The notes under the pieces: generated by a model
Databases searched by the model: none
Seen by the model: only the letters and a program-made list of their open reading frames with translations
Told to the model about the DNA's origin: nothing
Source: Candidatus Methanomethylicia archaeon
GTDB lineage: Archaea; Thermoproteota; Methanomethylicia; CALHIW01
Reading direction: 5' to 3'
Length of the DNA stretch: 64,000 bases
Assembly (NCBI GenBank): GCA_038845975.1
Contig: JAWBQF010000013.1
Coordinates: 1-64,000, forward strand
Position numbers and translations under genes: made by a program
Shown: positions 27,236 through 63,322 of the stretch, piece by piece
Position numbering within the stretch: position 1 is the first letter of the stretch
How the letters are laid out: the number at the start of each line of letters is the position of its first letter

Positions 27236-27239
27236 TGCT

Positions 27240-43620: not shown

Positions 43621-43689
43621 TAAAATCTATTATCTTCGAATTCTTTAAGAGCTTCTATGAATATAGAAAGTTTTAAGATATAGGAGAAG

Positions 43690-44184
43690 TTATTCCTCTA
43701 GCTCGACAACCATTTCGCAGTAGGGATCACCTGCTGATCGAAGCTTCTCAAATTTTACCTTTAGCTTGTGATTAAGAAGCTCAGCTGCTCTCTTCTCAAA
43801 TTCAAAGTGGCCTTCACTACATAGTTTAGCTGCTATTGGATCAGGATTCTCAAAGAAGTGGCATGTATGGTATCTTAGAATAGCCTTTTTACTTGATGCT
43901 TCCACAATCTCCATTTTATAACCCATTATTTCCTGAGCCAACTTAAAGTATGAAACAAAAGTTTTAGCATCGTTTCCCTCTATATTGAATGATTTAAGTC
44001 CTCTTAGAAAGAAGTTTTCAGCTCCTTTCCTCCATACTTGCTTAATTACTTTAAGACCGGCTTCTCCAAACCTCTCATATACTGCTCTTTCAAGCTCAGC
44101 CATGTACCAGCATCTAGTTCTACCTGTAGCTTTCCATTTCTTTTCAGGGGGCCATTCCTCCTCAGACAGCTTTACTTCACTCAA
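43690..44184 (-). CDS. ATC-hydrolase/V4R-like small protein
   Basis: ERFGE, HTCHFF, LC and GDPYCE motifs; overlaps the ACAD stop. Confidence 0.7.
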   Translation of the reverse strand: MSEVKLSEEEWPPEKKWKATGRTRCWYMAELERAVYERFGEAGLKVIKQVWRKGAENFFLRGLKSFNIEGNDAKTFVSYFKLAQEIMGYKMEIVEASSKKAILRYHTCHFFENPDPIAAKLCSEGHFEFEKRAAELLNHKLKVKFEKLRSAGDPYCEMVVELEE

Positions 44185-45409: not shown

Positions 45410-45447
45410 AATAACACCTAGCTAATCTTTACCTTTAATATTTAAAC

Positions 45448-46239: not shown

Positions 46240-46245
46240 GTTTCC

Positions 46246-47505
46246 TCACCATGTATAGAAGCCTTCCCCAGTCTTTTTACCTAGTTTTCCCCTACTGATA
46301 AACTCTAGAAGTAGTTGATCAGGCTCATAGAAAATACCATAATCCTCCTTTACAGTTTTCCTCTTATCCCTTAAAATGTTTACAATATTATCTAGGCCAT
46401 ATTCATCAGCTATCTCTAGGAGACCCTTCGGGAAATTGTATCCAAGCTTTAGAGAAGTATCTATTTCTTTAGCTGTAGATACATTATTTCTAACTAGCCA
46501 AGCGGATAAGTTAACTGCTGGAGCTAATACTTGTATTGGATCTATTTTTTCACCGGCATCTTTAGGAATCTCTACTTTAACCCATTGACCTGGCTTAGGA
46601 TAATCATAGAATCCCTTACCTGTCTTAACTCCAAGCCATCCCTTACCATGGTATTCCATTGAAAGCTTTAATGCATATTCACGTATTTTAACGTATTCCT
46701 CATGAGGCTCCCATTCAGGATATTTATTACGCATCTCATTAAAGTATGTATTTTCGCCGATCTCTATATCTATTGCTCCAGTAAAATCTACTAGTTCAAA
46801 TGGACCCATAGGTAGGTTAAGCTTATATCTAAATGCTGAATCTATTTCTACTGGTTTAGCTTCTCCTCTTTGAATCATTGCAAAGGCTTCATATCTAATA
46901 GTTCTATAAACTCTATTAGCTATGAATCCTCTTATATCCTTATTAACAAGTATAGGTTCCTTCCCTAATTTTTGGGCTAGCTTAAAAGCTACCTCAGCAG
47001 TTTCATTACTTGTATATTTACACTTCACAATCTCTATAAGCCTCATTACTTGAGGAGGGTTAAACCAATGCATACCTACAACTTTATCCGGTCTATTGGT
47101 AGCTTCAGCCATAGGCGTAATTGGTAAGCCACTAGTATTGGAAGCTATTACTGCGTGAAATGGAGCATGTTCATCAACATCTTTAAAGGTCTGAATTTTA
47201 AGGTCTAGTCTTTCAGGTATGGCTTCAATAATGAAGTCAGCGTTATTAACAGCCTCTCTAACATTAACATAGGTTGAAATTCTACTTAGTGTCGAATCAG
47301 CATCTACCCTACTAATTCTCCCGCGCTCAATAAGCTTATCTAAACTCCACTTTATCTTCTCAATAGCTCTATTAAGTATTTCATGAGAAACATCAACTAA
47401 GTTGACACTGTATTTGTTCATAGCAAAAACTTGAGCGATACCGTGACCCATAATACCAGCACCAATAACAGAAACAGTTTTTAAATTTTCAAGCTTTAAG
47501 CCCAT
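46246..47505 (-). CDS. 3-hydroxyacyl-CoA dehydrogenase with duplicated C-terminal domain
   Basis: GAGIMGHGIA, EAIPE, SNTS, HWFNPP, GFIANR, PMGPF. Confidence 0.95.
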   Translation of the reverse strand: MGLKLENLKTVSVIGAGIMGHGIAQVFAMNKYSVNLVDVSHEILNRAIEKIKWSLDKLIERGRISRVDADSTLSRISTYVNVREAVNNADFIIEAIPERLDLKIQTFKDVDEHAPFHAVIASNTSGLPITPMAEATNRPDKVVGMHWFNPPQVMRLIEIVKCKYTSNETAEVAFKLAQKLGKEPILVNKDIRGFIANRVYRTIRYEAFAMIQRGEAKPVEIDSAFRYKLNLPMGPFELVDFTGAIDIEIGENTYFNEMRNKYPEWEPHEEYVKIREYALKLSMEYHGKGWLGVKTGKGFYDYPKPGQWVKVEIPKDAGEKIDPIQVLAPAVNLSAWLVRNNVSTAKEIDTSLKLGYNFPKGLLEIADEYGLDNIVNILRDKRKTVKEDYGIFYEPDQLLLEFISRGKLGKKTGEGFYTW

Positions 47506-47566
47506 AATTAATAACACCCATTCCGGCTATTAAAGCTTAGAATAAAAACTTTTCTATTATTAACTT

Positions 47567-48270
47567 GATACTGTTACTTTTAGATTTTTGAGTAGGCTTT
47601 AGGAAGCTATCTCTTGGAGGTGATTTTTGTAGATAGACTTCTTAAAGCCCTGAGGGATAGAGGTATTTTCAGGCGTAATAAGGTTTCGCTTAAAAGAAGC
47701 TGAGGGCATGTATTCTCTACATGGCTTAGTTATAGGGATATTGCTACGTCTGTCGGGTTGTTGATGTGAGCTATGTATCTGTATGGTGTTGGATTCAGAA
47801 GATTGAGGGAGTAAGAATTGATGTGAAGCCAATAGGGGGATGGTAGCTATTGATGAGATGAAGCTGAGGAGGCATCATTTCTATTATGGGCTGCAATAGA
47901 TGTTAAGACCAAGAGCTTCCAGCAATGAGGGCTTCATGGCGGAGAAGCATACTGGATGCAGATCTCTTCCTGAAGCAAGTCCTTAAGGCATGTGTTAATA
48001 AGCCTCTAATCCTAGTAGGGGCCATGGTATCCCCAGGCATTACATAACCATGGTTTAAGATGGAGGCATCAAACCTTCGCTAGGAATACGATAGAGAGAT
48101 GGTTTCGAACACTTAAGGATCGAACAAAAGATTCTACACAACTTCAGACAAGAAACTCATAAAGATCAACCTATTCCTAAACTTCTTCATACTCTGGTAT
48201 AACTGGATAAGACCTCATCAAACCATAGGAAAACCACCAGCAATAACATAAACCTAAAAGTAACAGTATA
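47567..48270 (+). mobile_element. Decayed IS6-family element, group B copy 2
   Basis: TIRs ATACTGTTACTTTTAG / CTAAAAGTAACAGTAT. Remnants VAIDE, WAAIDV, GPWY, RNTIERWFRTLKDRT, WYNWIRPHQT. Confidence 0.88.
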
Positions 48271-48395
48271 AATCCAATTTCATTAGCTTAGCATACACAT
48301 AGTAATGATCATAACATTTATACTAGCCTTCAATATTTTGAGAGTATATACCAAATCATATAAGAATGGGGGTATGTAGCCTTTGTTAGGGCTAG

Positions 48396-48436
48396 TATTA
48401 ATTTTAATATGATATCTTATCATATTAAAATTAGTA
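48396..48436. repeat. Palindrome with perfect 16-bp arms and 3-nt loop
   Basis: TAATTTTAATATGATA-TCT-TATCATATTAAAATTA at 48399-48433. Confidence 0.8.
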
Positions 48437-48733
48437 TGATAAGGATATGTAGACTGTTTCTTTACACTCTCAAATGTAACTCATTATGGACTTAATTAAT
48501 ATTATATTCATCAATAAACTCTTTTAATTAACATGGATAATTGATTACAGTCCACTAAATATTCTGAAAAGAAAAATTATTCTTATAAATATAGATGGTA
48601 TTCCTACTTTCTTAAAACCCATAACCAATAATTATATCAAACAAGTAGGAAATACTCCAAGTAAGACTTCTTAAGACATGAAACATGAATCGTCTATAAG
48701 TAAAACTTGAATTTATTATCACAGTATTGTATT

Positions 48734-49147
48734 ATGAATAGCAATATAAGATATTTGCTAAATGAGTCTAGGAGGTTTTTAAATCTTGCTTTTGAAGAGT
48801 TTAAAAGAGGACTTAATGAGGAAAGGGATGAAGTCATTAGGGATGATGCTGAAAAATCATGGAATGCTATAGTTCAAGCAACAGCAGCTCTCCTACTATT
48901 TAAGGGGTTTAAAGAGGAGGAGGCAAAGACATATAAGCAAAAGAGGACTGCACTTGAAGATTTAGGTATTAGGGATGAGACTATTAGGAAACTAGGTTTT
49001 AGAGATAGATTTATGGCCAAGGAGAATACGCTACATATAAAATGCTTCTACGATGGAGAGTATAGAGTAGAAGTAATTAGAGAGGAAATTGAAAAAACCA
49101 AACAATACATAGATGATATAGAGAAGCTATTAAAGGGAACCATCTAA
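48734..49147 (+). CDS. PaREP1-family (HEPN-like) protein
   Basis: AEKSWNAIVQATAAL and LH..CFYDG motifs. Confidence 0.75.
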   Translation: MNSNIRYLLNESRRFLNLAFEEFKRGLNEERDEVIRDDAEKSWNAIVQATAALLLFKGFKEEEAKTYKQKRTALEDLGIRDETIRKLGFRDRFMAKENTLHIKCFYDGEYRVEVIREEIEKTKQYIDDIEKLLKGTI

Positions 49148-49541
49148 TAGAGAAATTATCTGGAAACCATTTAAATTTTCTCTTAGGATTGCATGGAGTT
49201 TAAATGTTTCTGGTTATGGGATTCAAGCTTCTAGTTCCATCCAAGTGAAGACTTCTAGAATTGAGGACCTACCTATACAGTTGTATAATGAAGCCATAAA
49301 GTATTGATGGGGCTAGTAATGAATGCGACTCTAAATATCTCATCTTAGATGATTTTGGGGGGTTAAGTATGGTAGGTCTAAGAGCCTGGGGTTACAGATA
49401 ATTCAACATATAACACAAAGAAGATAAATGTTGAAAGCCTCATAGGAAATATAATACTAAAGTAGGGTAATAAATATGCTTAAGTTTACAGAATCCATGT
49501 GCTATACGCTAAGTTTAAATATTGTTATTCTTAGTGATGTT

Positions 49542-50978
49542 ATGCGTTCCCCATCAGCTTATATTGAAAAGCTAATGAATATGAAGCCTAATATCTATAT
49601 TGGCGGTAAAAAAGTTGGAAGAGATTTTAAAGCTTTTCAGCCTGGTATTAAAACCATTTCTATGACTTATCAGCTTGCGGAAAGTAGTGAGTTTAGAGAT
49701 TTTATAATTGCTGAATCACATCTTACAGGGGAGAAAATTAATAGATTTACACATATATGTCAAAGTCCTGATGATCTTTTAAAGAAGCAGGAAATGATAA
49801 GGAGAACATGTCAAATTGTTGGTAGATGTATTCAGAGATGTATGGGATGTGATGCTATAAATGCTCTTTCAGTTGTTACAAAGGAAGTTGATGATAAATA
49901 TGGAACAGAATATTATAGGAGATTTCTAAAGTATTTATATATGTTTCAAAGAGAAGACTTAACTGCAGCTTGTGCCCAAACAGATGTAAAGGGAGATAGA
50001 AGTCTAAGACCTTTTCAACAGCATGATCCTGACCTCTATTTAAGAATTGTTAAGAAGACAGATGAGGGAGTTATTGTAAGAGGAGCTAAGACTCATATTA
50101 CTATTGCACCTTATGCTGATGAGATTATAGCTTTACCTACAAGAGCAATGACTGAGAGGGATTCTGATTATGCTATTGCATTTGCTATCCCAGCTGATTG
50201 GGATGGTGTTAAGCTAATAACAGTTTCCCATAGTCATAGGGAGAGGAAAGAATTGAAGGCGCCTGTAACTGAGTATTCAGCATCACATTCTATGGTTGTT
50301 TTCGATGATGTATTTGTTCCATGGGATAGGGTTTTCATGTGTGGTGAATGGGATTTTGCTGGGAGATTAGCTATGCTTTTCGCTACATATCATAGACATA
50401 GCTATACTGGCTGTAAACCAGCTATGACTGATATATTGATGGGAGCTGCTGCTTTAGCTGCAGAATATAATGGCATTGAGGGGGCACATCATGTTAGAGA
50501 TAAATTAGCAGATATGGTTGCAACAGCTGAACTTGTTTATGCAGCTGGAATAGCTTCAGCAGTAAAGGGTGTTAAAGCATCATCAGGAACCTTCATCCCA
50601 AATATAGTATATGCAAACGTTGGAAGATACCATGCAGGAGTAAAAATATATAGTGAGTTTGAAATTGTTGCTGATATTGCAGGCGGAATTGCAGCAACAG
50701 TACCATATGAGGAGGACTATCTAAACCCTGAAACAAGAAAATACATTGAGAAATACATAGCTAGAAAGAAGAACATACCTCCAGAACATATATATCGCTG
50801 CTTTAAATTCATTCAAGACATAATATGCTCCGCACCAGCGGCAGCTTCACAGATTAGTGGAGTTCATGGTGGGGGGTCCCCTATAATGGAGAGAATTACA
50901 ATAATGGCTAACTACGATATAGAATCTAAGAAGAAAATAGCGAAATATTTAGCTGGAATTGAGGAATTAGCAATATAG
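49542..50978 (+). CDS. abfD: 4-hydroxybutyryl-CoA dehydratase family protein
   Basis: CIQRC, AQTDVKGDRS, HRHSYTGCK ([4Fe-4S] ligands 3 Cys + His), HGGGSP. TATA at 49514 supports the start at 49542. Confidence 0.85.
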   Translation: MRSPSAYIEKLMNMKPNIYIGGKKVGRDFKAFQPGIKTISMTYQLAESSEFRDFIIAESHLTGEKINRFTHICQSPDDLLKKQEMIRRTCQIVGRCIQRCMGCDAINALSVVTKEVDDKYGTEYYRRFLKYLYMFQREDLTAACAQTDVKGDRSLRPFQQHDPDLYLRIVKKTDEGVIVRGAKTHITIAPYADEIIALPTRAMTERDSDYAIAFAIPADWDGVKLITVSHSHRERKELKAPVTEYSASHSMVVFDDVFVPWDRVFMCGEWDFAGRLAMLFATYHRHSYTGCKPAMTDILMGAAALAAEYNGIEGAHHVRDKLADMVATAELVYAAGIASAVKGVKASSGTFIPNIVYANVGRYHAGVKIYSEFEIVADIAGGIAATVPYEEDYLNPETRKYIEKYIARKKNIPPEHIYRCFKFIQDIICSAPAAASQISGVHGGGSPIMERITIMANYDIESKKKIAKYLAGIEELAI

Positions 50979-51363: not shown

Positions 51364-52068
51364 CTATAGACCTAGATATGCTCTTTTAACTATTGGGTTG
51401 TTAGCTAGCTCCTCAGCTTTACCTTCCCCTACGGTAATTCCACCTTCTATAAGGAAGCCGTAGTCCATGATTTTAAGTGTTAAGTGTATATTTTGCTCTA
51501 CTAGGAGTATTGTAATTCCCTCGTTTCTAAGCTTTTCAACAATACTGATTATTTGCTGTGTTATTTTTGGTGCTAATCCTAGACTTGGTTCATCAAACAT
51601 TAGTAGTTTAGGTCTAGTTATAAGGGCTCTAGCAATAGCTAGCATTTGCTGCTCACCACCACTTAGAGTTTCCGCTCTTTGATTTCTTCTCTCCTTTAAT
51701 ACTGGGAATAATGTATATATCCAATCTAAACTATCTCTAAAACGTCTTCTAGCATCCTTAATATATGCTCCCATCTCTAGATTCTCGTAAACAGTCATAT
51801 TTCCAAATATCCTTCTACCTTCTGGAACAAGTCCTATACCAAGCTTTACTATTTCACTAGGCTGTTTACCGGTAATATTAGCTCCATTAAATTCTATTAA
51901 TCCACTCCAGGGTTTTAATAATCCAATTATAGTATTTAACGTTGTTGTTTTCCCAGCTCCATTAGGTCCTAGAAAAGCTGTTATGCTTTTCTCCTCTACT
52001 TTTAGGTTAACATTATGGAGTACCTTAAAATCTCCATATCCTCCTTCTAGCTTCTCAACTTTAAGCAT
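51364..52068 (-). CDS. livF: ABC ATPase LivF-like
   Basis: GPNGAGKT, VPEGRRIF, LSGGEQQM, DEPSLGLAP. Confidence 0.92.
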   Translation of the reverse strand: MLKVEKLEGGYGDFKVLHNVNLKVEEKSITAFLGPNGAGKTTTLNTIIGLLKPWSGLIEFNGANITGKQPSEIVKLGIGLVPEGRRIFGNMTVYENLEMGAYIKDARRRFRDSLDWIYTLFPVLKERRNQRAETLSGGEQQMLAIARALITRPKLLMFDEPSLGLAPKITQQIISIVEKLRNEGITILLVEQNIHLTLKIMDYGFLIEGGITVGEGKAEELANNPIVKRAYLGL

Positions 52069-52072
52069 TTCA

Positions 52073-52828
52073 TCACCTCTTAACGAATTTAAATGCTAAA
52101 TCCCGATCGCCGAAATATACTTCTGCAACCTTAATATTGCTTGCTATATCTTCAGGTTTTCCTTCAGCTATTTTTACCCCTTCATGGAGAACAGCAATTC
52201 TATCTGAAACATTCATTACAGCATGCATTAAATGTTCAATCATAAGTATTGTTATTTTCTTTTCATTTTTAATTCTCCTAATAATATCAAGCATTTCAGA
52301 AATCTCAGATGGTGTTAATCCAGCTAGACATTCATCAAGTAGTAGTAATTCAGGCTCTGAACCAAGCGCTCTTGCCAGTTCAAGTCTCTTTCTTCCTTGA
52401 GCATTTAAAGACTTGGATGGAGTTTCCTTAAACTTGTCTAACCCAATAGTTTCAATAATATTCTCGGCTAATTTTTTAGCTTCTTCTACTGATATTTTAC
52501 CATACCTCTTACCATTAAGGATACTTACCATTACATTTTCAAGTACTGTTAGGTTATTGAATGGACGTGTTACCTGATATGTTCTCGCAATACCCATACG
52601 ACATCTTAAATGGGGAGGTAGCCTAGTAATATCTTTCTCCCTATATACTATTCTACCTGAGTCAGGAAGATATACCCCAGTTATTACATTAACAAGTGTT
52701 GTCTTCCCTGAGCCGTTTGGACCTATTAATCCTAAAATCTCGTTTTCATAAATATCTATTGAAACATCTTTTAGAGCAGTAACTCCTCCAAATCTTTTAA
52801 CAATATTCTCTACCTTAAGTAGAGTCAT
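52073..52828 (-). CDS. livG: ABC ATPase LivG-like
   Basis: FGGVTAL, GIARTYQ, LLDECLAGL, IEH. Confidence 0.92.
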   Translation of the reverse strand: MTLLKVENIVKRFGGVTALKDVSIDIYENEILGLIGPNGSGKTTLVNVITGVYLPDSGRIVYREKDITRLPPHLRCRMGIARTYQVTRPFNNLTVLENVMVSILNGKRYGKISVEEAKKLAENIIETIGLDKFKETPSKSLNAQGRKRLELARALGSEPELLLLDECLAGLTPSEISEMLDIIRRIKNEKKITILMIEHLMHAVMNVSDRIAVLHEGVKIAEGKPEDIASNIKVAEVYFGDRDLAFKFVKR

Positions 52829-52836
52829 ACTCCCAC

Positions 52837-53760
52837 CTAAATTAAAAAGTCTCTTAACCTCTTAAATCTACTTCTTAGTAATCCTATAATACCTTCAGGA
52901 GCTATTGAAATTATAGCTACTACAAGTAATCCAAATATAAGTAGCTGTAATCCTGGGAAGTATCTCATAAGTAGGTCTTTAAGCATTTCATATATTACTG
53001 CTCCAATTATAGGTCCTATAGCTGTTCCACTACCTCCAAGTAGAACTATAAGTATTGCTTCAATAGACCATGAGAGATCTATTACTGTTTCAGGCATTAC
53101 CCAAAATATTTTGAAGGCTACAACACCTCCTGCAATTCCTGGAAATAATGCACTTAAAATGAATGCTATTACCTTACATCTAGTTGTATTAACACCTGAT
53201 GTTTCAGCTGCATCATGATCCTCTCTTAAAGCCTTTAGAGAGTAGCCGAGAGGAGATATTGATAGTTTCAATGTTAAAACTGTTGCTGCTATTGATAATA
53301 GTAGGAGGATATATGTGAGAACATATGGATTGTATGCTTCACCTAAATATCTAAATAGCGTTATTCCAGCAGCTCCTCCTGCAATCTTACCCCCAATTAT
53401 AAGATACCTAACAGCAGGAACAGTGCATAAAGTACATATAGCAAAGAAGGGGCCTCTAAGCCTTAAAACCACAATTCCAATAAGAAATGCTACAATAGAT
53501 GATACTATACCTCCAATAATCATCGATAAATATGGATTCAGCCCTTGAACAACCAGTAATGCAAACATGTAAGCCCCTATACCTATGAATACTGCATGTC
53601 CAAAATTGTATAGTCCACCGAAACCCATAATTATATTTAGAGACTGTGATATAACCATTAGAAATAATATGTAGTAAACTATTTCAAGATATGCTTTAGA
53701 AATTAGTGATGAAGCTATTAAGAGAATATATATAAGTATAAATCCAACATATTTCTTCAT
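52837..53760 (-). CDS. livM: ABC permease LivM-like
   Basis: FGHAVFIGIGAY, RLRGPFFAI, REDHDAA, LLGGSG. Confidence 0.9.
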   Translation of the reverse strand: MKKYVGFILIYILLIASSLISKAYLEIVYYILFLMVISQSLNIIMGFGGLYNFGHAVFIGIGAYMFALLVVQGLNPYLSMIIGGIVSSIVAFLIGIVVLRLRGPFFAICTLCTVPAVRYLIIGGKIAGGAAGITLFRYLGEAYNPYVLTYILLLLSIAATVLTLKLSISPLGYSLKALREDHDAAETSGVNTTRCKVIAFILSALFPGIAGGVVAFKIFWVMPETVIDLSWSIEAILIVLLGGSGTAIGPIIGAVIYEMLKDLLMRYFPGLQLLIFGLLVVAIISIAPEGIIGLLRSRFKRLRDFLI

Positions 53761-53764
53761 AATA

Positions 53765-54655
53765 TCACCTACGTCTCCCAAGAATTCCTTCAGGCATTAC
53801 AAGCAATACAATAATTAGGATGAGAAAGCTTAGAAATGGAGTAAATGAAAAGGGTTCAATCCCTGGGAAATAGCCTAAAACTATAGGTGAGATTTGTTCT
53901 AGAAGACCGAGAATTAAACCACCAATCAATGCACCCCATGGATTCCCTAATCCACCTACAACAGCTATTACGAAGCATCTAAGTAGATATATATGCCCCA
54001 TGTATGGGTTTATACCTGTTGGAAGATAGACAACAATAAGTGATCCGCCGATAAATGCTAATACTGAACCTAAAGCAAAGCCTAGAGCTAGAGTAGTTTT
54101 AACATTTACACCGCAAATAGCTGCTGCACCTGAATCCCATATTACAGCTCTAATTGATTTACCGAAGTATGTTCTATACAGGATAAAGTATACTATAACT
54201 ATTATAATGATACATGATATAAATGTAAATATGTATGTGATTGGTAGGGAGAACCAGTAATGCTTAATAACTCCTAGAGCCCATGGAACTCCACGATAAT
54301 CAGCAGTCCATAAAACCTTCATAAGCTCTGCAAGAGCTATTCCTAGAGCAAATGTAGCTACGAGAGTGGAGTGAATATCAGGAGAGAATAGTAATCTATA
54401 GATTATAGTGTAGAATGTAAGTATACCAATAACGAATCCTAGTAGTGCGGAGAGAGGTATACTAGCGATTGGATTAAGACCTATTAAAACCCACGCCCAA
54501 TAGGCAGTATAGGCTCCTAATGTTAGGAATTCTGCATGGGTGAAATTAACAACCCTCATTACCCCCCATATTAGATTTAAACCCATAGTAGCTAAGCCAT
54601 AAACGGCCCCTATAATCACTCCGTATACTACTATCTGAACTATAAGTTCAAACAT
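53765..54655 (-). CDS. livH: ABC permease LivH-like
   Basis: GLNLIWGVMRVVNFTH, GKSIRAV, VVGGLG, PEGILG. Confidence 0.9.
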   Translation of the reverse strand: MFELIVQIVVYGVIIGAVYGLATMGLNLIWGVMRVVNFTHAEFLTLGAYTAYWAWVLIGLNPIASIPLSALLGFVIGILTFYTIIYRLLFSPDIHSTLVATFALGIALAELMKVLWTADYRGVPWALGVIKHYWFSLPITYIFTFISCIIIIVIVYFILYRTYFGKSIRAVIWDSGAAAICGVNVKTTLALGFALGSVLAFIGGSLIVVYLPTGINPYMGHIYLLRCFVIAVVGGLGNPWGALIGGLILGLLEQISPIVLGYFPGIEPFSFTPFLSFLILIIVLLVMPEGILGRRR

Positions 54656-54676
54656 AAAATCACCAAAAAGAAAAAA

Positions 54677-56107
54677 TTAGGGTTTTAGTTCTGGCCATCC
54701 TTCCTTTTCCTCCCATGTAGGCATAGGTATAGGATTAGAAGTAGCAAACTCAAATGGATAGATAACAGCGTAAACCAGCTTATTACCCTCCCCTCTCTGC
54801 CACTGTACTACAGGATTTATGGATCCAATCTGTTTAGCTGGATTCTCAGGATCCACCTTAAATCTTGACTTCACACAGTAAAAGTCAAGCTGCTTAGCAG
54901 CTTGTATCAGCTTATCAGGATTAAGACTTTGAGCGGTTTCTATACATTTAGCCGCAACAAGTACTGATATAGCTCCATATCCTGTATAGGCTGAGGGTCT
55001 TCCAGTTCCTCCAAGCTCATAATAGAGTTTTACAAGCTCATCACTTGTAGGACCATAATACTCCTTCCCCTCCTTAGCTGCTATAACATCCCACTTACAT
55101 TCAGGCTCCCATGTTGTTTCACCCATAAAGCCAACAGCCCACTTACCAAGATCACTAAATTCAGGTTTTGCAACCGTTACTTGTATTATTACCCATTTAA
55201 TATTTATTCTTAAATCTCTTAATTGTGTAGCTATTAAATATCCATCCTTGTAGTGGCCACCAACACAAAGTATATCTGGTTTAAGAGCTGCTATTTCTCT
55301 AAGCATTGGCGTAGCATCAGTAATATCTGGAGGATAAGACCTATCATAAACCACTTCAAAACCGAAATTCTTCGTCTTTATACGAGCTGATTCACCTAGA
55401 CTTCTACCCCATTCATCATCCTTAAATATTATAGCAACCTTCTTCGCTCCAGGATCTACTTCCTTAATCATAGTGAATGGGGTTTGCCAATAGTGTATTA
55501 CTGCGAATCCATGTGTAGAAACCATGTATTTAAATCCTTGCTGATATAGGGCATCAGAACTACCTCCAAAGTTTATTGAAAACATCTTATACTTTTCAGT
55601 TACTGGTGCTGTAGCCATAACAAATGTTGAGGCATATGGATGAATTACAATATGAACCTTATCCTCAGTAATAAGCTTCTCAACAAGCTTAACAGCATAA
55701 TCCCTCTTACTCTCACAATCATAGTATATTAGCTTTAACGGTACCTTCCTCCCCTTAAAGTTTACACCTCCATGATCATTAATCCATTTTACAGCACACT
55801 GTATACCCCTAAAGCTTGCAGCACCCTCAACAACCTGAGCACCACTTAGCTGTATTGCAACGCCTATACGTATCTCACTAGGAATCTCCTCAATCGGAGT
55901 TGTAGGTGTAGTTGGGGTAGGAGTTGTAGGGGTTGGAGTAGGAGGTGTGGTTGGTGTTGTGGGGGTGGTTGGAGTTGGTTTAGGGGAGGGGGATGTTGGA
56001 GATGGCGTAGGAGGAGTCATAACCATTGCTGCAGCCGCAATTATAGCTATAACAACAATAACAGCAATTATTATAGCTATAGTTTTAGATACCGCACGCG
56101 AGTACAT
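54677..56107 (-). CDS. LivK-type substrate-binding protein with Pro/Thr repeat linker
   Basis: IRIG...LSG, INDHGGV, YYDCES; PT-rich linker encoded at ~55895-56017. Confidence 0.9.
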   Translation of the reverse strand: MYSRAVSKTIAIIIAVIVVIAIIAAAAMVMTPPTPSPTSPSPKPTPTTPTTPTTPPTPTPTTPTPTTPTTPIEEIPSEIRIGVAIQLSGAQVVEGAASFRGIQCAVKWINDHGGVNFKGRKVPLKLIYYDCESKRDYAVKLVEKLITEDKVHIVIHPYASTFVMATAPVTEKYKMFSINFGGSSDALYQQGFKYMVSTHGFAVIHYWQTPFTMIKEVDPGAKKVAIIFKDDEWGRSLGESARIKTKNFGFEVVYDRSYPPDITDATPMLREIAALKPDILCVGGHYKDGYLIATQLRDLRINIKWVIIQVTVAKPEFSDLGKWAVGFMGETTWEPECKWDVIAAKEGKEYYGPTSDELVKLYYELGGTGRPSAYTGYGAISVLVAAKCIETAQSLNPDKLIQAAKQLDFYCVKSRFKVDPENPAKQIGSINPVVQWQRGEGNKLVYAVIYPFEFATSNPIPMPTWEEKEGWPELKP

Positions 56108-56775: not shown

Positions 56776-58290
56776 ATGGATATCTATGAGAGGATTAAGT
56801 GTAAGGATCTTTTAGATGTTGTTTTACCCCCTACCGAAGTAGTGAAAAAACATATACCTAGGAAAGGAACTATTGCTTGTAGTGGAATGGCGCAGATGAG
56901 TACTCCTAAAGTAGTTCCTATATTTCTCGCTAAGTATGTGGAGGAGACAGGTGAAGAGTTTAAACTGAATATCTATACTAGTGGTTCAGCAGCTCCTGAA
57001 CTTGATGGAGTATTAGCAAGAGTTAATGCTATCAATAGACGGTATGTTTACCAAAACAACCCTATTGTCAGGGAGAAAATAAATAGGGGGATAACTCACT
57101 ACTATGATATATGGCTTGGAGAGTTCCCCCGTCAGTTAAAGTACGGTTTTCTAAATGATGTTTGCGGCCCAATAGATGTAGCAATAATAGAGGCGGTAAG
57201 TATAAGGGAGGACGGGTTCATTATCCCTTCATTATCTCTTGATAATATACCTTTATATATGCAGCTTGCTAAGAAAGTTATTATTGAGCTAAATACTGCT
57301 AAACCTGAGAACCTTGAGGGAATACATGACGTATATTCTCCCCAGCCAGGAACCCCTATACCTATAGTTAGAGTTAATCAAAGAATTGGAGTTCCATATG
57401 TTCCATGCGATCCTAAAAAGATAGTAGCTATAGTTCCATCTGAAGCTCTTGAAAAGGAAATATTCTACGGAAAGCCAACAGTTATTGAGGAGAAAATAGT
57501 AGATAACTTATTCAACTTCCTACTAGATGAAGTTAAAAAAGGAAAAATATCTAAAAGCCTCTATCCTCTCCAAACAGGTATAGGTCCAATTGGAGATACT
57601 GTAGCTGCCAAGTTAATAGATTCTGACTTCACAGATTTAGAAATATGGACTGAAGTTGCTCAAGCAGGCTATCTAGATGCTTTAGATTCAGATAAGGTAA
57701 AATCATTAAGTACATCAGTGTTCATGATTCCCCCTGAAGATAAAAAGCATGGAGAAAGATTTTTGGAAAATCTAGCAGAATATAAGAAGTCTATAGTATT
57801 AAGACCTCTTGAAATTACAAACAACTCAGAACTAATAACCAGACTTAACCTTATAGCAATGAATCAAGCTATAGAAATCGATATTTACGGAAATGTAAAT
57901 ATGACACATGTACTTGGAAGTAGCGTAGTTAACGGTGTTGGAGGTTCAGGAGAATTTGCAAGATCCTCCTATCTCTCTATATTCCTACTCTCATCTACAG
58001 CTAGAGATAATAAAATTTCCAGAATTGTTCCAATGACACCCCATGTAGATGTAACAGATCATGATGTTGATGTTATAGTAACGGAGCATGGATGGGCTGA
58101 TCTTAGAGGATTATCTCCAAGAGAAAGAGCTAAGGAAATAATAGAGAAATGCTCCTCACCGGAATATAAAGATGAACTATGGAAATACTTTAATGAAGCA
58201 TGTAGAAAAGTTGGAGGACATATACCACACATTCTCTCTAAAGCCTTCTCATTCCATGAAAGACTAATAGAAACAGGAAGTATGAAGTAA
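56776..58290 (+). CDS. Acetyl-CoA hydrolase/succinyl-CoA:acetate CoA-transferase family (class I)
   Basis: LQTGIG, WTEV, EIDIYGNVN, NGVGGSGEF, VTEHGWADLRGLSP. Confidence 0.92.
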   Translation: MDIYERIKCKDLLDVVLPPTEVVKKHIPRKGTIACSGMAQMSTPKVVPIFLAKYVEETGEEFKLNIYTSGSAAPELDGVLARVNAINRRYVYQNNPIVREKINRGITHYYDIWLGEFPRQLKYGFLNDVCGPIDVAIIEAVSIREDGFIIPSLSLDNIPLYMQLAKKVIIELNTAKPENLEGIHDVYSPQPGTPIPIVRVNQRIGVPYVPCDPKKIVAIVPSEALEKEIFYGKPTVIEEKIVDNLFNFLLDEVKKGKISKSLYPLQTGIGPIGDTVAAKLIDSDFTDLEIWTEVAQAGYLDALDSDKVKSLSTSVFMIPPEDKKHGERFLENLAEYKKSIVLRPLEITNNSELITRLNLIAMNQAIEIDIYGNVNMTHVLGSSVVNGVGGSGEFARSSYLSIFLLSSTARDNKISRIVPMTPHVDVTDHDVDVIVTEHGWADLRGLSPRERAKEIIEKCSSPEYKDELWKYFNEACRKVGGHIPHILSKAFSFHERLIETGSMK

Positions 58291-59016: not shown

Positions 59017-59913
59017 TCAATCATTCTTGCTTCTCTCAGTTATTTCCTTTACTAGTTGTAGAAGGGATTTTGCTTGTTTATATGTTGCTTCATCAATCAT
59101 TCTTCCAGCATATGTTGTTGCTCCAAGACCTTTAACTAATGCATCCTCATATGCTTTAACAATTCCTTCAGCTTCCTCAACTTCTTGAGGTGATGGTGTA
59201 AAGATCTTATTTACTATTTCAACATGAGATGGATGAATAACAAACTTACCTTTAAATCCAAGCGCTGAAGCTATTCTTGTCTCCCTTTCTAATCCCTCCA
59301 TATCTATTATTAAGCCTAAATATACCGTATCTAAAGCTAAGATATTGTAGGCATGGGCTGTAATGGATATTACAGATCTAATGTATAGAAGTTCAAACTC
59401 ATCTTTTGAAAGCTGCATATAGCTTCTACCTAGATCACGTAGGAAGTCCGCAGCTCCAAATGTTAAAGCTACTATTCTAGGGCTTGCCTTAACTACTTCA
59501 TTTATATTTACTAATCCCTTAGCACTTTCAATTATTGGTATTATGGATATTCTATTCTTTAAATTCTTCCTATTCTCTTCAGCTTTAATAGCTTCCTCAA
59601 GCATAAATATATCATTTCCAGATTCTGTTTTAGGTAGTACAATACCATCCAATGTTTTCTGAACAGCATACTTAACATCTTCACCATATAGACCGGAGCT
59701 AATACTATTAACTCTTACAAATATGCTTGAGCTCTTAGGCTTATCCTCAATATCCTCTAGGAAGTCCTTAATAAACCATCTTGCAGTTTCCTTTTCACCT
59801 ATAGGTACAGAATCCTCTAGATCTAAAACTATAGCATCAGCTCTCTCACTTAGTGATCTTGTAATCATTCTCCAGCTATTTGCTGGAACAAATAGTAGCG
59901 ATCTTAAAATCAT
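59017..59913 (-). CDS. CitE/malyl-CoA-lyase superfamily acyl-CoA lyase
   Basis: RSLLFVPAN, DLEDSVP, VRVN, PK, IESAKG, FGAADF, GK..IHP. Confidence 0.9.
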   Translation of the reverse strand: MILRSLLFVPANSWRMITRSLSERADAIVLDLEDSVPIGEKETARWFIKDFLEDIEDKPKSSSIFVRVNSISSGLYGEDVKYAVQKTLDGIVLPKTESGNDIFMLEEAIKAEENRKNLKNRISIIPIIESAKGLVNINEVVKASPRIVALTFGAADFLRDLGRSYMQLSKDEFELLYIRSVISITAHAYNILALDTVYLGLIIDMEGLERETRIASALGFKGKFVIHPSHVEIVNKIFTPSPQEVEEAEGIVKAYEDALVKGLGATTYAGRMIDEATYKQAKSLLQLVKEITERSKND

Positions 59914-59917
59914 GGTT

Positions 59918-60814
59918 TCACCTCCTTAAAATCTTGGATAGCGTTATAGCAATGTCTTTAGGCTTATCGACAATATATGCTCCAGCATCTTTAAGAGCTT
60001 TAATCTTACTTTCAGCAGATCCTCTACCTCTCTCAACTATAGCGCTTGCATGTGAAAACCTTATACCTGATGGTAGGAATCTACCTGCTATATATGCTAC
60101 TAGAGGCTTTGTAAATCCACCGCTTCTAATTAGCTCTGCAGCTTCCTCCTCCTGTACACCGCCAATCTCTCCAAATAGGGCTACAGCTTCGGTTTCCTCA
60201 TCTTTCTCAAACATTTCAAGTAGTTCAGCCTCAACAGTTCCAAGTAGGGGCTCAGCACCTACATGTACTGCTGTAGTTATACCTAGTCCAGCCCTACATA
60301 TACTCCATGAAACTGTTGTTGTCTGCCCACCACTACGGGAAATAACCCCTATAGATCCTGGCTTAAAGGCTTCCCTAGCATTCTCTATGGATCCTCCAAC
60401 CCATCCAAGTACAGCTTTCCCAGTACTTATAGTTCCAAAGGATCCTGGACCGATAATCCTAACTTCCTTAACTCTGGCATAGGCTATTATTTCAAGCACG
60501 TCATGTACTGGAACATGCTCAGTAGGAATCTGGAGTATCTTAATATTGCTATTTATAGCTTCAAAAGCAGCCTTCTTAACTTCCTGTGGAGGTACAAGAA
60601 TAACTGAAGCATCAACCTCTCCATGAGCTTTTTTAAGCTCCTCTACACTATTATATACTGGAACACCCCATACATTTAATCCTCCACGTCCAGGAGTTAC
60701 ACCTCCAACAATCTTAGTACCATACTCCAACATGTATCGAGCTGCAAACTCCCCTGTTCTACCAGTTATTCCCTGAACAATAACTCTAGTTTCCTCATTG
60801 ATAAGTATAGCCAT
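59918..60814 (-). CDS. Divergent acid:CoA ligase alpha subunit (SucD/ACL-like)
   Basis: QGITG, GVTPG, GEIGG, RFSHASAI (phospho-His retained). Confidence 0.85.
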   Translation of the reverse strand: MAILINEETRVIVQGITGRTGEFAARYMLEYGTKIVGGVTPGRGGLNVWGVPVYNSVEELKKAHGEVDASVILVPPQEVKKAAFEAINSNIKILQIPTEHVPVHDVLEIIAYARVKEVRIIGPGSFGTISTGKAVLGWVGGSIENAREAFKPGSIGVISRSGGQTTTVSWSICRAGLGITTAVHVGAEPLLGTVEAELLEMFEKDEETEAVALFGEIGGVQEEEAAELIRSGGFTKPLVAYIAGRFLPSGIRFSHASAIVERGRGSAESKIKALKDAGAYIVDKPKDIAITLSKILRR

Positions 60815-60822
60815 AATCCCAC

Positions 60823-61083
60823 CTAAAGTGGAACCACTACCTTAACTGCTTTACCACCACTCCATTCACAGTGTATCTCACATGCTAAACATTCATTACA
60901 TATTCTACTTGCTTCATCCATGTTAACAGCTAAGACAGGTTTTCCATTAGCTATTTTTAGAATACTCCTACCGTAAAGTCTATCAGCCTTAACACATGCA
61001 AACCTACATTTAGGAGCTATACACTTATCATAGTCTATTATGACTTCACATGTCCTCGTCTTAAAGATAAGTCTATTAGACAT
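60823..61083 (-). CDS. Atypical ferredoxin-like protein
   Basis: C-x4-C-x3-C-x3-D and C-x2-C-x2-C-x3-C motifs; TAATG coupling with the upstream gene. Confidence 0.75.
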   Translation of the reverse strand: MSNRLIFKTRTCEVIIDYDKCIAPKCRFACVKADRLYGRSILKIANGKPVLAVNMDEASRICNECLACEIHCEWSGGKAVKVVVPL

Positions 61084-62324
61084 TATTTCACCTCCTTTAG
61101 ATAAGCATCAACAAGTTCCTTAACCCTATCAGCTATGAAATCTGTTTCATAAATATAGTCTCTACCATAAATCTCTAGTCTTATAGGTAGATCTTTAAGG
61201 CCTCTTCTTATTATTTCATGTGTTTCAGCCTCCTTATTACCTGCTAGGAGAATAACTACTGGAAATCCGGGTTTATCCTTAAGCATTTCATTTAATGCTT
61301 TAACAATAGCATGACCGTGATGCCACTGCTCCTGACTTGCAAGTGTAGACCCAATTAAAACATATCCAACTACTCCAGGCTGGGAAAGTATTGCTTTAAC
61401 AACTCTATAAACCTTTGATGCTGGCGGATCTCCGCTTGTATCTGCATAATTCGCTATTTTGATACCTCTTTTAATTAAAGCATCTGCTGCAAGCATGGCT
61501 CCACCCCCACCAATACCGTGAAATCCTACACAACCGCTAGTATCTTGAACTAACTGTATGAAGTATCCTGTTCCACGCGGATCATTCTCCTCATAACTCC
61601 AAATTCTCTTTTCAATCTCAGTAAATTCTCTACCAATATCTCTAGGAGCTTTAATTTCTGGATGTCTATATAGGGAATTATCATCAATTGTTATTCTACA
61701 ATCAGCAGCAACCAATTCACCACTACTAGTTAATACTAGTGGGTTTATTTCAGCAATTGTTGCATCATAATCTTTAGATAGCTTAAATAACTTACATGCA
61801 GTATCAGTTACCATATTAACTATGTTATCACTAAGCTGGAAAGCTGAAAGCTCCTTTTTAACATTTTCAATATTAAACCCGCTTATGGGATTAATAGTTA
61901 TGCTCCTAATCTTCTCAGGACTTCTAGAAGCTACTTCCTCTATATCTACACCCCCCTCAATACTAAATATTAATGTTTGAGCTCTTACTCTATATGAATC
62001 ATTAACAATTAACCCAAGATAGAATTCATGTTTAACATCTAGTTTCTCCTCTATTAGAATCTTATCAACTTTAAAACCCCTAATATTGGATCCTAAAAGA
62101 CTTCGAGCAGTTTCTTTAACTTCCAAATTGTTTGATGCTATTTTTATCCCTCCAGCTTTAAAACGTCCAGTAATATGTATCTGAGCCTTTACCATAACTG
62201 GATATTTAACTCTAAATGATACTTCACTAGCCTCCTCAAATGTACTGGCAACAAAGCCATTAGGAATCTTTATGCCATACATCTCAAGTAAACGCTTACC
62301 CTGATATTCAAGAAGACGGGCCAA
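61083..62324 (-). CDS. Divergent acid:CoA ligase beta subunit (ATP-grasp, ACL/Ccs-like substrate domain)
   Basis: LLEYQGK, KAQ..GRFKAGGI, EINPL; substrate domain GIGGGGAML, ANYADTSGDPP, GSTLASQ. Confidence 0.85.
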   Translation of the reverse strand: MARLLEYQGKRLLEMYGIKIPNGFVASTFEEASEVSFRVKYPVMVKAQIHITGRFKAGGIKIASNNLEVKETARSLLGSNIRGFKVDKILIEEKLDVKHEFYLGLIVNDSYRVRAQTLIFSIEGGVDIEEVASRSPEKIRSITINPISGFNIENVKKELSAFQLSDNIVNMVTDTACKLFKLSKDYDATIAEINPLVLTSSGELVAADCRITIDDNSLYRHPEIKAPRDIGREFTEIEKRIWSYEENDPRGTGYFIQLVQDTSGCVGFHGIGGGGAMLAADALIKRGIKIANYADTSGDPPASKVYRVVKAILSQPGVVGYVLIGSTLASQEQWHHGHAIVKALNEMLKDKPGFPVVILLAGNKEAETHEIIRRGLKDLPIRLEIYGRDYIYETDFIADRVKELVDAYLKEVK

Positions 62325-62636
62325 GACATCACCTAGCGGAATAATACTGGAAACATTTATGTTTTTCGGGAGCTAATTAAACCTTTCAAGATATTGAATG
62401 ACTGAATAATTAAGTTTACAAGACCAGCATATTCTAGAAAATTTACCTAAATCGTTTACATAAAACAAATTATATATACTTCACATTTATACATTAAGTC
62501 TATCATGCACTAATCTGGTATTTACTTAGACAATCTTAACATATTTAGCTTAATTTAAACATTAATTATGCTGTATAGAGATTTAGATATTTTAATACTA
62601 CTATAAGTTTATTTATTAGCTTCATAATTTATAGTT

Positions 62637-63322
62637 ATGGTTGAAAACATTTTAGAGAAGGTTCTTAGAGAAGTGGAAGAGAATCCTGAACTAGCATATA
62701 AACTATACGATATATTAAGAAGAAAATTTGTAACTATAGAATTATTGGAGGAATACATGAAGAGGAGTGATAGAAGATTTAGTAAGCTATTAAGGGAGAT
62801 AAAAATATTGAGAAGGGATTGGGGCAAAAGATTTGAGGCTGTAGAGAAAACATTACTTGAGCATAGTAAAAGGCTTGAAGCAATAGAGAAAACATTACTT
62901 GAGCATACTAGGCTTATTGGTGAGGTTAGGGCTGGTATTGGCGGTATTACTAGGAGGCTTGGAATGGATTTGGAGAAGACAATTTTAAATGTATATAGGG
63001 ATGTATTGGAGGGACTAGGTATTAAGCCAGGCAAAGTTGAGAAGTTTATATATAAGGATATTGACGGTAAATACTATAAGAGGGGGCCAGAATAGATTTA
63101 GCTATATATGTTCATGATGAGGACGTATACTTCATGGAGGTTAAAAGCCTAATAGAAATAGATGATATTGAATGGTTTAACCAGAAATGCGAAATAGTAG
63201 AGAGAATAATAGGTAGAAAACCGAGAAGAAAAATAGCTATAGGAATAAACATGGTAAAGGAAGCATATGAAAGGACAAAAGAGCTAAACATAGAGGCAAT
63301 ATACGGAGCAATAATAGAATAG
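62637..63322 (+). pseudogene. Coiled-coil + PD-(D/E)XK (DUF3782-type) gene split by a single frameshift
   Basis: Coiled-coil with a 42-bp repeat. Adding one G to the G5 run at 63082-63086 joins KRG-ARIDLAIYVHDEDVYFMEVKS. Confidence 0.75.
62826..62909 (+). repeat. Tandem 42-bp (14-aa) repeat x2
   Basis: KRFEAVEKTLLEHS / KRLEAIEKTLLEHT with shared TAGAGAAAACATTACTTGAGCATA. Confidence 0.85.

Follow-up and report, generated by a model that had tools for sequence, protein, structure and literature searches.

Does the second succinyl-CoA synthetase-like beta subunit encoded by a Candidatus Methanomethylicia archaeon make succinyl-CoA, or does it serve, together with the genes that follow it, a different reaction? 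The gene lies within the first 64,000 nt of contig JAWBQF010000013.1 (assembly GCA_038845975.1), a stretch that we call the window, and it is followed by genes for a small Cys-rich protein, a SucD-like alpha subunit and a CitE-family lyase (59017-62324). A first-pass annotation of the window had described these genes as an operon for the two-step, ATP-dependent cleavage of a hydroxy acid, existing beside a canonical SucCD pair. The four open reading frames (ORFs) are indeed present on the minus strand, head to tail in the order beta, Cys protein, alpha and lyase, with the quoted motifs in their translations, and the SucCD pair was likewise found at 6396-8408, where both proteins pass their equivalog cut-offs (Table). 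Our analysis indicates, with a probability of roughly 85%, that the four genes form one metabolic module in which a ligase and a lyase act in two steps; its likely reaction is the interconversion of a hydroxy acid, for instance malate, with acetyl-coenzyme A (acetyl-CoA) and a small oxo acid.

We scanned one genome per species with the motifs A[SN]QEQWHH and DTSGDP[PT]AS, which gave 352 confirmed stretches, and analyzed the best 80 of the 352 as loci. At 70 loci the sequence extends 2300 bp or more beyond the beta gene, and among these the Cys protein and alpha are found in 70/70 and the lyase in 66/70, in the same order every time. Such a four-gene arrangement is far beyond chance, and it bears out the first-pass annotation both in the conserved linkage of the lyase and in the fold of this partner, which is that of CitE and not of citrate synthase (HpcH_HpaI, PF03328, 150.5 bits in the window; CitE fold in the 66 loci). 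The other four loci keep beta, the Cys protein and alpha without a CitE lyase after them (L015 and L017, Dehalococcoidales; L059 and L061, Desulfohalobiaceae). At L059 and L061, genes for an aldehyde:ferredoxin oxidoreductase and a family III CoA-transferase stand after alpha in place of the lyase. The hosts among the best 80 are archaea (Thermoproteota, Nitrososphaeria, Bathyarchaeia, Heimdallarchaeota, Geothermarchaeales, Archaeoglobi and Thermoplasmata) and bacteria (Dehalococcoidia, Desulfobacterota, metagenome-assembled genomes (MAGs) labelled Myxococcota, and Syntrophomonadaceae), with a single isolate, Desulfofustis glycolicus DSM 9705 (L072). A protein search with beta returned a large family, 52-100% identical over the full length, whose members are named in the sources "ATP-grasp domain-containing", "acetate-CoA ligase family" or "succinyl-CoA synthetase beta".

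What kind of ligase subunit is this beta protein? Its sequence is predicted to join an N-terminal, SucC-like ATP-grasp domain to a C-terminal acid-binding domain of the type found in ATP-citrate lyase (ACL) and citryl-CoA synthetase (CCS). In a Pfam search it matched ATP-grasp_2 (180 bits) and Citrate_bind (PF16114, 33.5 bits, cut-off 26.8) but not Ligase_CoA (PF00549), which matched the canonical SucC at 8e-24. It scores below the cut-offs of the SucC equivalog NF001913 (250.2 bits, cut-off 370), of the malate thiokinase subunit MtkA (NF010647, 173.3 bits, cut-off 604) and of the ACL-type ATP-grasp domain PF24948 (46.4 bits, cut-off 83). All three signature loops of the canonical SucC (GNGAGL, NFLDVGG, NIFGGI) are replaced, as had been claimed, by GIGGGGAML, ANYADTSGDPP and GSTLASQ, and this beta carries the family motifs HGIGGGGAM, ANYADTSGDPPASK and ASQEQWHHGH. 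The likeness of these loops to ACL and CCS, also claimed, holds for the C-terminal domain, as residues 240-413 find CCS as their best solved relative (6hxq_B, 1.7e-13; Thermus succinyl-CoA synthetase (SCS), 8.6e-7; AclB, 1.1e-6); the ATP-grasp half is instead nearer to SucC, and the whole protein ranks Thermus SCS (2e-61) before CCS (6e-41) and AclB (1e-32). The corresponding ACL loop reads ANFT. Its absence, which the first-pass annotation had pointed out, is correct for the window, where the loop is LASQ, and needs refinement for the family: most relatives read LANQ, such that the Ala-Asn pair is usually kept.

The phylogeny places the family outside ordinary SucC and MtkA. We built a tree of 80 sequences (IQ-TREE quick search, with support from the Shimodaira-Hasegawa-like approximate likelihood ratio test, SH-aLRT) from 72 family betas including that of the window, a fused sister described below, the window SucC, two second SucC-like copies from the loci, the named SucC of E. 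coli and Natrinema, two named MtkA and one ACL-like plasmid protein. The tree has no CcsA row and thus places the family relative to SucC and MtkA, not to CCS. The cassette betas and the fused sister form their own clade (SH-aLRT 99, stem 1.52), and SucC and MtkA form the other (SH-aLRT 99), with MtkA beside E. coli SucC. The outgroup, an ACL-like gene from a Paraburkholderia plasmid, sits on a branch of length 10, too long to inform the tree. Below both cut-offs and in a clade of its own, beta is, by these sequence comparisons, neither SucC nor MtkA. Of the outcomes that would have refuted the first-pass annotation, neither a place within ordinary SucC nor an unconserved lyase linkage was observed.

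The alpha subunit is, as judged from its sequence, the CoA-binding, phosphohistidine-type partner: it matches the Pfam domains CoA_binding (87 bits) and Ligase_CoA (36.7 bits), stays below the SucD equivalog (291.5 bits, cut-off 336), and carries the phosphohistidine loop FSHASAI, whose His255 is invariant in 29 sequences and which aligns with MGHAGAI of the window SucD. The lyase is predicted to break or make a C-C bond, giving acetyl-CoA and a 2-oxo acid. Besides HpcH_HpaI it matches C-C_Bond_Lyase (83 bits), and it stays below every NCBIfam equivalog cut-off (citE, 207 bits, cut-off 443; RipC, 172, cut-off 375; haloarchaeal malyl-CoA lyase, 84, cut-off 500). Its best solved relatives are human CLYBL (2.3e-45) and then the malyl-CoA lyases 5ugr and 4l9y, and its residues R67 and D274, which do not vary among 25 sequences, correspond in the alignment to Arg76 and Asp299 of malyl-CoA lyase from Rhodobacter sphaeroides. 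Two possible guides to the lyase substrate failed to discriminate. Human CLYBL ranks first among solved structures for the lyases of both subclades described below. In malyl-CoA lyases, a Pro and a Trp crowd the pyruvate methyl group, according to the available part of PMC3832036; across this family the Trp is F, Y, L or M, and the Pro is kept in most members and is Val in the window. As the same part of that source describes CitE-family lyases as promiscuous, with activity on malyl-, methylmalyl- and citramalyl-CoA, the substrate will not be settled from the sequence alone.

The fourth gene encodes a protein of 86 aa that contains two Cys motifs of the ferredoxin type (C21, C26, C30 and C62, C65, C68, C72), of which the second (CNECLACEIHC) is canonical and the first reads C-x4-C-x3-C-x3-D. 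C21, C30, C68 and C72 are invariant in 36 sequences, and position 34 (Asp or Cys) covaries with position 62 (Cys, Asp or Gly). Because these two positions vary together, one predicted cluster site would consist of three Cys and an Asp in many members and be lost in a few, the other site being kept. Two further results fit less well with an iron-sulfur protein: no Pfam domain, Fer4 included, was matched at E<=0.01, and although the AlphaFold model is confident (pLDDT 90.3), Foldseek gave no match at E<=0.001, the best being weak (E 0.4-0.5, TM score 0.55-0.56) and to an oxalate oxidoreductase and the delta subunit of a pyruvate:ferredoxin oxidoreductase.

Modelling of beta, alpha and the small protein as a complex gave an ipSAE of 0.83, the best of three controls reaching 0.00; in a benchmark of 80 solved complexes and 110 mismatched pairs, 58 and 2, respectively, reach this mark, counts that hold only roughly with the custom alignments used. 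Runs share at least 93% of contacts, and the partners have a pLDDT of at least 88. The modelled contacts join beta residues 240-248, 301-311, 334-342 and 371-375 with residues 9-12, 37, 63-70, 74 and 82-86 of the small protein, and they include the family-specific stretches PPASK (301-311) and WHHGHAIVKA (334-342), which flank the presumed acid-binding loop. Moreover, one deltaproteobacterial genome encodes a natural fusion (P0121), a 514-aa beta with a C-terminal ferredoxin-like domain; the best 120 clusters found with this protein are all 59-100% identical to it, nearly all 506-529 aa long and aligned over 98-100%, and two fused relatives carry precomputed Fer4 matches in Pfam. Given the independent support of the complex model and the fusion, the small protein is probably a third, iron-sulfur subunit of the ligase, docked on the C-terminal domain of beta. 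The name "ferredoxin" in the first-pass annotation thus fits the Cys motifs, and the protein is most likely a ligase subunit rather than a separate electron carrier. As the protein is modelled on the helix after the acid-binding loop and neither reaction is redox, its task may be to support the structure or to sense the redox state, more probably than to transfer electrons. To our knowledge, no characterized member of the SCS/CCS/ACL superfamily has an iron-sulfur subunit.

This 514-aa fused beta belongs to a sister system (L098:7582-10829, genome G006, contig C15, minus strand), in which it is followed by an alpha and a 265-aa protein of citrate-synthase fold that passes the NCBIfam cut-offs for citryl-CoA lyase (Ccl) subfamilies (290 bits vs 212 and 245). 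A class I fumarase alpha gene adjoins it, and the same genome holds two CitE-type cassettes (L009, L016). Ccl-like genes of 252-272 aa with the citrate-synthase fold occur away from ligases in close relatives of the window genome (L095:6839-8955 in G002, L096:7583-8362 in G008 and L097:3692-4450 in G036); the one in G002 adjoins a family III CoA-transferase gene.

Taken together, the conserved gene order, the conserved phosphohistidine, the conserved Arg and Asp of the lyase and the separate clade of beta argue for a single module. In the mechanism that we propose, the first step would be catalyzed by a heterotrimeric, ADP-forming acid-CoA ligase of the SCS/CCS/ACL superfamily: beta would bind ATP through its ATP-grasp domain and the acid through its C-terminal domain, alpha would bind CoA and carry the phosphohistidine, and the iron-sulfur protein would sit on the C-terminal domain of beta. 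In the second step, the CitE-type lyase would interconvert a 3-hydroxy-3-carboxy-acyl-CoA with acetyl-CoA and a 2-oxo acid. For malate, the reactions would read (S)-malate + ATP + CoA <-> malyl-CoA + ADP + Pi, then malyl-CoA <-> acetyl-CoA + glyoxylate.

This two-step logic, an ADP-forming ligase followed by a lyase that yields acetyl-CoA and an oxo acid, is common to CcsAB plus Ccl of Hydrogenobacter thermophilus and to AclAB. CcsA is nearest to the C-terminal domain of the cassette beta, and loops of the GGGG and ANY..SG.P types are common to CcsA, AclB and the cassette beta. The cassette differs from both systems in its extra iron-sulfur subunit, in an ATP-grasp half nearer to SucC, in reading AGNKE where CCS and ACL have the basic stretch VRR(N/G)GP, and in its lyase, a CitE/HpcH TIM barrel in place of the citrate-synthase fold of Ccl and the AclA C terminus. 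The malate thiokinase MtkAB and malyl-CoA lyase Mcl of serine-cycle methylotrophs would have the same chemistry and likewise bring a SucCD-type ligase and a CitE-superfamily lyase into one cluster, ordered mcl-mtkA-mtkB on an Aminobacter plasmid. However, MtkA keeps the SucC loops (GNGAGL, NFLDIGG, NIFAGI) and groups with bacterial SucC, whereas the cassette beta does neither; the two MtkAB clusters examined have no iron-sulfur subunit; Mcl is longer than the cassette lyase, carries GKWAIHP and is 31% identical to it; and the cassette hosts are strict anaerobes and archaea. With CitE, CLYBL and RipC/Ccl of the CitE-like superfamily, the cassette lyase has fold and catalytic residues in common, but its partner is an ATP-dependent ligase in place of CitD/CitF or a CoA-transferase. 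We set aside the "new ACL" idea for Thermoproteus tenax, which, in the part of PMC1403158 available, combines citE with acetyl-CoA synthetase and CoA-transferase genes, a different gene set.

Which acid does the ligase activate? We grouped 927 ORFs, taken from the window and the 80 loci, into clusters and annotated representatives. The loci form two subclades, A (64 loci, including the relatives of the window) and B (16 loci, including D. glycolicus). An MmgE/PrpD-family protein (33/64), a flavoprotein of the succinate dehydrogenase (SDH)/fumarate reductase type (19/64), DUF1847 (9/64) and a class I fumarase (8/64) occur in clade A and at 0/16 loci of clade B, and TfrB/SdhB proteins and, at one locus, a malic enzyme are also among the clade A neighbours. 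Conversely, a GlcD-like FAD oxidase (9/16) and the oxaloacetate decarboxylase OadAB (4/16) occur in clade B and at 0/64 loci of clade A. A Fer4+CCG protein (7/64 and 7/16 in clades A and B), a tripartite ATP-independent periplasmic (TRAP) transporter (1/64 and 5/16) and a Liv-type ATP-binding cassette (ABC) transporter (9/64 and 3/16) occur in both. Between the clade A cassette and the fumarate-reductase-like flavoprotein, DUF1847, a roughly 300-aa protein without assignment (cluster 28) and an Archaeoglobi cupin recur (e.g., L014:5592-7468, L009:1159-1893, L047:12549-13265); from this placement, they may be extra subunits of the flavoenzyme.

In clade B, malate and malyl-CoA are well supported by the gene content. 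A glycolate oxidase would supply glyoxylate, the lyase would join it to acetyl-CoA, and the ligase running backwards would give malate and ATP, from which oxaloacetate decarboxylase would suit an onward route. The D. glycolicus genome has only two SucC-like genes, the canonical one and the cassette beta, and a single HpcH_HpaI gene over the cut-off, that of the cassette lyase; no malate synthase was found in this genome. The single CitE-family gene and the glycolate-oxidase-like neighbours therefore point to malyl-CoA. In agreement with this, D. glycolicus is named among the anaerobes that use the malyl-CoA pathway (PMC6313629), and a related account is given for Syntrophobotulus glycolicus (PMC8092247), in the parts of these papers available. 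This pathway of anaerobic glycolate and glyoxylate degradation, known from S. glycolicus, D. glycolicus and Moorella sp. HUC22-1, requires, according to the same parts of both sources, a malyl-CoA lyase and an ATP-yielding step from malyl-CoA to malate. It is defined by enzyme activities; the D. glycolicus cassette adjoins glycolate-oxidase-like genes, and the subclade of the window has a different neighbourhood. The comparison with malate thiokinase and malyl-CoA lyase drawn by the first-pass annotation thus stands as the best-supported reading for clade B; in the subclade of the window, malate, citrate/methylcitrate and citramalate are all in play.

For the module of the window itself, the sequence data are mixed and make malate our leading candidate, with a chance that we put a little short of even. 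Fumarase, SdhA/FrdA and malic enzyme, all found beside clade A cassettes, make or use malate. At the archaeal loci closest to the window, flavoprotein and fumarase score above the cut-offs of the SdhA/FrdA subfamily (862-936 bits, cut-off 826) and of the fumarase equivalog (342 bits, cut-off 276), respectively, and several bacterial neighbours fall below (TfrA of L009 and L047, 556-581 bits, cut-off 718; fumarase of L047, 247 bits, cut-off 276). The Pro seen in malyl-CoA lyases is present in the majority of the clade A enzymes, which we counted for malate. The host genome carries a class I fumarase gene on contig C10 and PrpD-like and DUF1847 genes on contig C15, and it has orthologues of the TfrA and TfrB that adjoin the cassette at locus L002 (67% and 51% identity). 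It also has a second CitE-like lyase, in a RipABC-like operon on the minus strand of contig C15 (L104:8454-14518). The other genes of this operon encode a YgfH-type CoA-transferase, a pair of RipB/Ich-like MaoC hydratase subunits, an acyl-CoA dehydrogenase and a major facilitator superfamily transporter. The lyase of the operon scores 217 bits on RipC, above the cassette lyase (172), and the operon looks, from its gene content, like a module for the degradation of itaconate, mesaconate or methylsuccinate; it would better fit the role of citramalyl-CoA lyase than the cassette does, which we also counted for malate. Near the canonical sucCD genes, and divergent from them, lies a class V aminotransferase gene (4844-6031, minus strand) whose best match is the aspartate-glyoxylate aminotransferase BhcA (242 bits, cut-off 650), a further point that we counted for malate. 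In plasmid clusters of the serine cycle, too, mtkAB has a gene for such a class V enzyme as its neighbour.

Several observations pull against malate in the window. The contexts of clades A and B are distinct and do not overlap, and their lyases are only 30-37% identical; given this divergence and the differing neighbours, the clade B reading may not carry over to the window. In favour of malate, and suggestive only, the ligase loops are near-identical in the two clades save for two to three residues before A(N/S)QEQ. The window has no clade-informative neighbours beside the cassette, where only a Liv-type ABC transporter and a CoA-transferase were found. Its lyase reads DTVY, as do CitE, CLYBL and the RipC-like paralogue, where malyl-CoA lyase has DGPF. 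The MmgE/PrpD-family protein, the commonest clade A neighbour, has no role if the acid is malate, and both the kinship of the beta C-terminal domain with CCS and the sister lineage with its citryl-CoA lyase-type partner lead toward citrate. Among 51 cassette genomes, we found one weak malate synthase match and one isocitrate lyase (1/51 each). Malate synthase is generally rare in anaerobes, which lessens the value of its scarcity. A link to the glyoxylate cycle was dismissed; both counts are from cassette-bearing genomes only and say little.

Could the acid be citrate or 2-methylcitrate? The cassette would then be a CCS with a CitE-type citryl-CoA lyase, acting as a two-step ACL or, in reverse, as an ATP-yielding (methyl)citrate synthase that feeds a PrpD-like dehydratase. 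The passing Citrate_bind score, the H. thermophilus CCS as nearest solved relative of the beta C-terminal domain and the pairing of the fused sister with alpha and a citryl-CoA lyase-type protein argue for this, as does the lyase, whose best NCBIfam match is citE and which is 34% identical to Enterococcus CitE. However, the basic stretch that includes an Arg and that we take to bind citrate in ACL and CCS is replaced in the window (vvrr-ngpeae in the CCS alignment vs villagnkeae), and a genome with two CitE cassettes and a Ccl-type system (G006) argues for different substrates of the two. The PrpD-like genes beside 33/64 clade A cassettes recall prp operons, in which a synthase adjoining the dehydratase is the norm, but they score only 44-77 bits against PrpD cut-offs of 458-950; SDH, fumarase and malic enzyme would suit a methylcitrate or tricarboxylic acid (TCA) cluster as well, although clade B is linked to glycolate oxidase and not to citrate enzymes. 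No PF00285 citrate synthase was found in the host genome, which is 93% complete, but its aconitase family is represented only by a LeuC-type protein beside an isopropylmalate-type dehydrogenase, and no isocitrate lyase/PrpB match was found in it, so that neither citrate nor methylcitrate would have an obvious onward route. Nor did a general replacement of citrate synthase by the cassette hold up: PF00285 is present in 36/50 cassette genomes, of which 25 carry one or more full-length matches of at least 415 bits, and there is no anticorrelation. We consider citrate or methylcitrate unlikely for the window, and an acid other than malate, citrate/methylcitrate or citramalate equally so.

With (S)-citramalate, ATP and CoA, the module would form citramalyl-CoA and then acetyl-CoA and pyruvate, at the end of a branched C5 dicarboxylate route from mesaconate, itaconate or methylsuccinate and with a ligase in place of the CoA-transferase. 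The best solved relative of the lyase, human CLYBL, is presumably a citramalyl-CoA lyase; RipC is its second-best NCBIfam match, and the DTVY shared with CLYBL, CitE and the RipC-like paralogue fits as well. Some class I fumarases encoded next to CitE-like lyases are known to act as mesaconases, and the divergent bacterial TfrA (L009, L047) and fumarase (L047) could be a methylsuccinate dehydrogenase and a mesaconase, but the archaeal neighbours nearest the window pass the cut-offs of true SdhA/FrdA and fumarase. The promiscuity described in the available part of PMC3832036 includes citramalyl-CoA. Set against this are the complete RipA/RipB/RipC-like operon already present in the host genome, the Pro of malyl-CoA lyases retained in most clade A lyases, and the lack of any hydratase or isomerase of known C5 routes in the neighbourhoods of the 80 loci and the window, and we hold citramalate to be quite improbable. 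Far less credible still is a second succinyl-CoA synthetase with the lyase and the Cys protein as unrelated neighbours. The SucC-like ATP-grasp half, with Thermus SCS as best whole-length solved match, the public naming of relatives as succinyl-CoA synthetase beta subunits and the succinate dehydrogenase genes beside some cassettes, as is often seen with sucCD, would agree with it. Yet the cassette pair fails the SucC and SucD equivalog cut-offs that the other pair of the window passes; beta lacks a Ligase_CoA match, has its NIFGGI-equivalent loop replaced and sits in a separate clade; and neither the lyase nor the Cys protein behaves as a chance neighbour, being attached in 66/70 and 70/70 loci.

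Malate thus being the preferred acid, the direction of the reaction bears on its meaning. A condensing, ATP-yielding direction seems as plausible as the ATP-dependent cleavage proposed by the first-pass annotation, because the reaction lies close to equilibrium and energy is scarce for these anaerobic hosts; toward malate, the probable direction in energy-limited anaerobes, the module would work as a malate synthase in which the energy of the thioester is conserved as ATP. More tentatively, and with doubt that it holds in full, the cassette could represent a third branch of the SCS/CCS/ACL superfamily with a required iron-sulfur subunit, in which an ATP-conserving condensation (glyoxylate + acetyl-CoA -> malate + ATP and, in some clades, oxaloacetate + acyl-CoA -> (methyl)citrate + ATP) would replace malate or citrate synthase, the iron-sulfur subunit, modelled in contact with the acid-binding loop, would switch this loop in response to redox state or oxygen, and the malyl-CoA pathway would gain its gene identity. 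If so, the energy-starved anaerobes concerned would range from Asgard and TACK archaea to Desulfobacterota and Dehalococcoidia.

The logic itself is known from ACL, from CCS with citryl-CoA lyase and from malate thiokinase with malyl-CoA lyase; what is new is the separate ligase lineage, the pairing with a CitE-type lyase and the third subunit. Literature searches returned no description of the cassette or of an iron-sulfur subunit in this superfamily and no paper that assigns the malyl-CoA pathway to the cassette gene family, on which supplementary gene lists (e.g., of PMC8092247 and PMC8671834) may bear. ATP-coupled, two-step cleavage or formation of hydroxyacyl-CoA marks key carbon branch points, as with ACL in the reductive TCA cycle and MtkAB plus Mcl in the serine cycle. 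Automatic annotation labels the cassette beta as succinyl-CoA synthetase, ATP-grasp protein or acetate-CoA ligase, and it is therefore likely that the cassette has been mistaken for a part of the TCA cycle in metabolic reconstructions for Bathyarchaeia, Heimdallarchaeota, Dehalococcoidia and sulfate reducers. If ATP is conserved in the condensation of glyoxylate with acetyl-CoA, the assumed energy balance of anaerobic C2 and amino-acid metabolism changes, and the cassette would be a compact candidate module for pathway engineering.

The layout of the locus fits a single transcript for all four genes, as the stop of beta overlaps the start of the Cys-protein ORF and the remaining gaps are 8 nt and 4 nt. 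A Shine-Dalgarno-like box (GGTGA) lies 5 nt before the TTG start of beta, whose N terminus, MARLLEYQGK, agrees with all relatives in the alignment, and an A/T-rich box lies about 35-40 nt upstream within the leader; beyond the leader, a DUF3782 gene (62637-63095) is divergent from beta. In two metatranscriptome runs of one study, short contigs matched pieces of all four genes with 0-8 differences, and no contig spanned two cassette genes by at least 31 letters; such contigs from RNA libraries do not by themselves establish transcription or a common transcript. The window is AT-rich (about 31-40% G+C) and belongs to a genome of 2.77 Mb in which the canonical SucC and the cassette beta are the only SucC-like genes. 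Its nearest named relatives are MAGs of Thermoproteota and Methanomethylicia, and hot-spring metagenomes contain DNA near-identical to it.

Table. Coordinates of the cassette and of other features of the window.
Feature	Position	Strand	Remarks
AT-rich leader, 312 nt	62325-62636	minus	upstream of beta; presumed promoter region, from the sequence
Beta (SucC-like ligase subunit)	61083-62324	minus	413 aa; TTG start
Small Cys-rich protein	60823-61083	minus	86 aa; eight Cys
Alpha (SucD-like ligase subunit)	59918-60814	minus	298 aa
CitE-family lyase	59017-59913	minus	298 aa
ScpC-type succinyl-CoA:acetate CoA-transferase	56776-58290	plus	convergent; 523 bits, cut-off 500
Liv-type ABC transporter	51364-56107	minus	adjoins cassette region
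Canonical SucC	6396-7535		NCBIfam SucC equivalog, 452.3 bits, cut-off 370
Canonical SucD	7536-8408		NCBIfam SucD equivalog, 411 bits, cut-off 336

Several other gene groups of the window deserve mention. At 12639-16005 (minus strand), a 665-aa ORF with only a weak MutS_V match (4.8e-6) adjoins a gene for a Fer4+CCG (HdrD/GlcF-like) protein, and a TAXI-type TRAP transporter at 16785-19818 adjoins this region. At 20761-23838, a MaoC-like dehydratase gene is divergent from two adjacent family III CoA-transferase genes; the best matches of these genes, all below the cut-offs, are succinyl-CoA:mesaconate CoA-transferase and formyl-CoA transferase, and a second Liv-type ABC transporter follows at 23835-28625. 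Thiolases are encoded at 30597-33409, and the stretch 39003-50978 holds genes for two acyl-CoA dehydrogenases, an enoyl-CoA hydratase and a 3-hydroxyacyl-CoA dehydrogenase, with an HpaB-family protein at 49476-50978.

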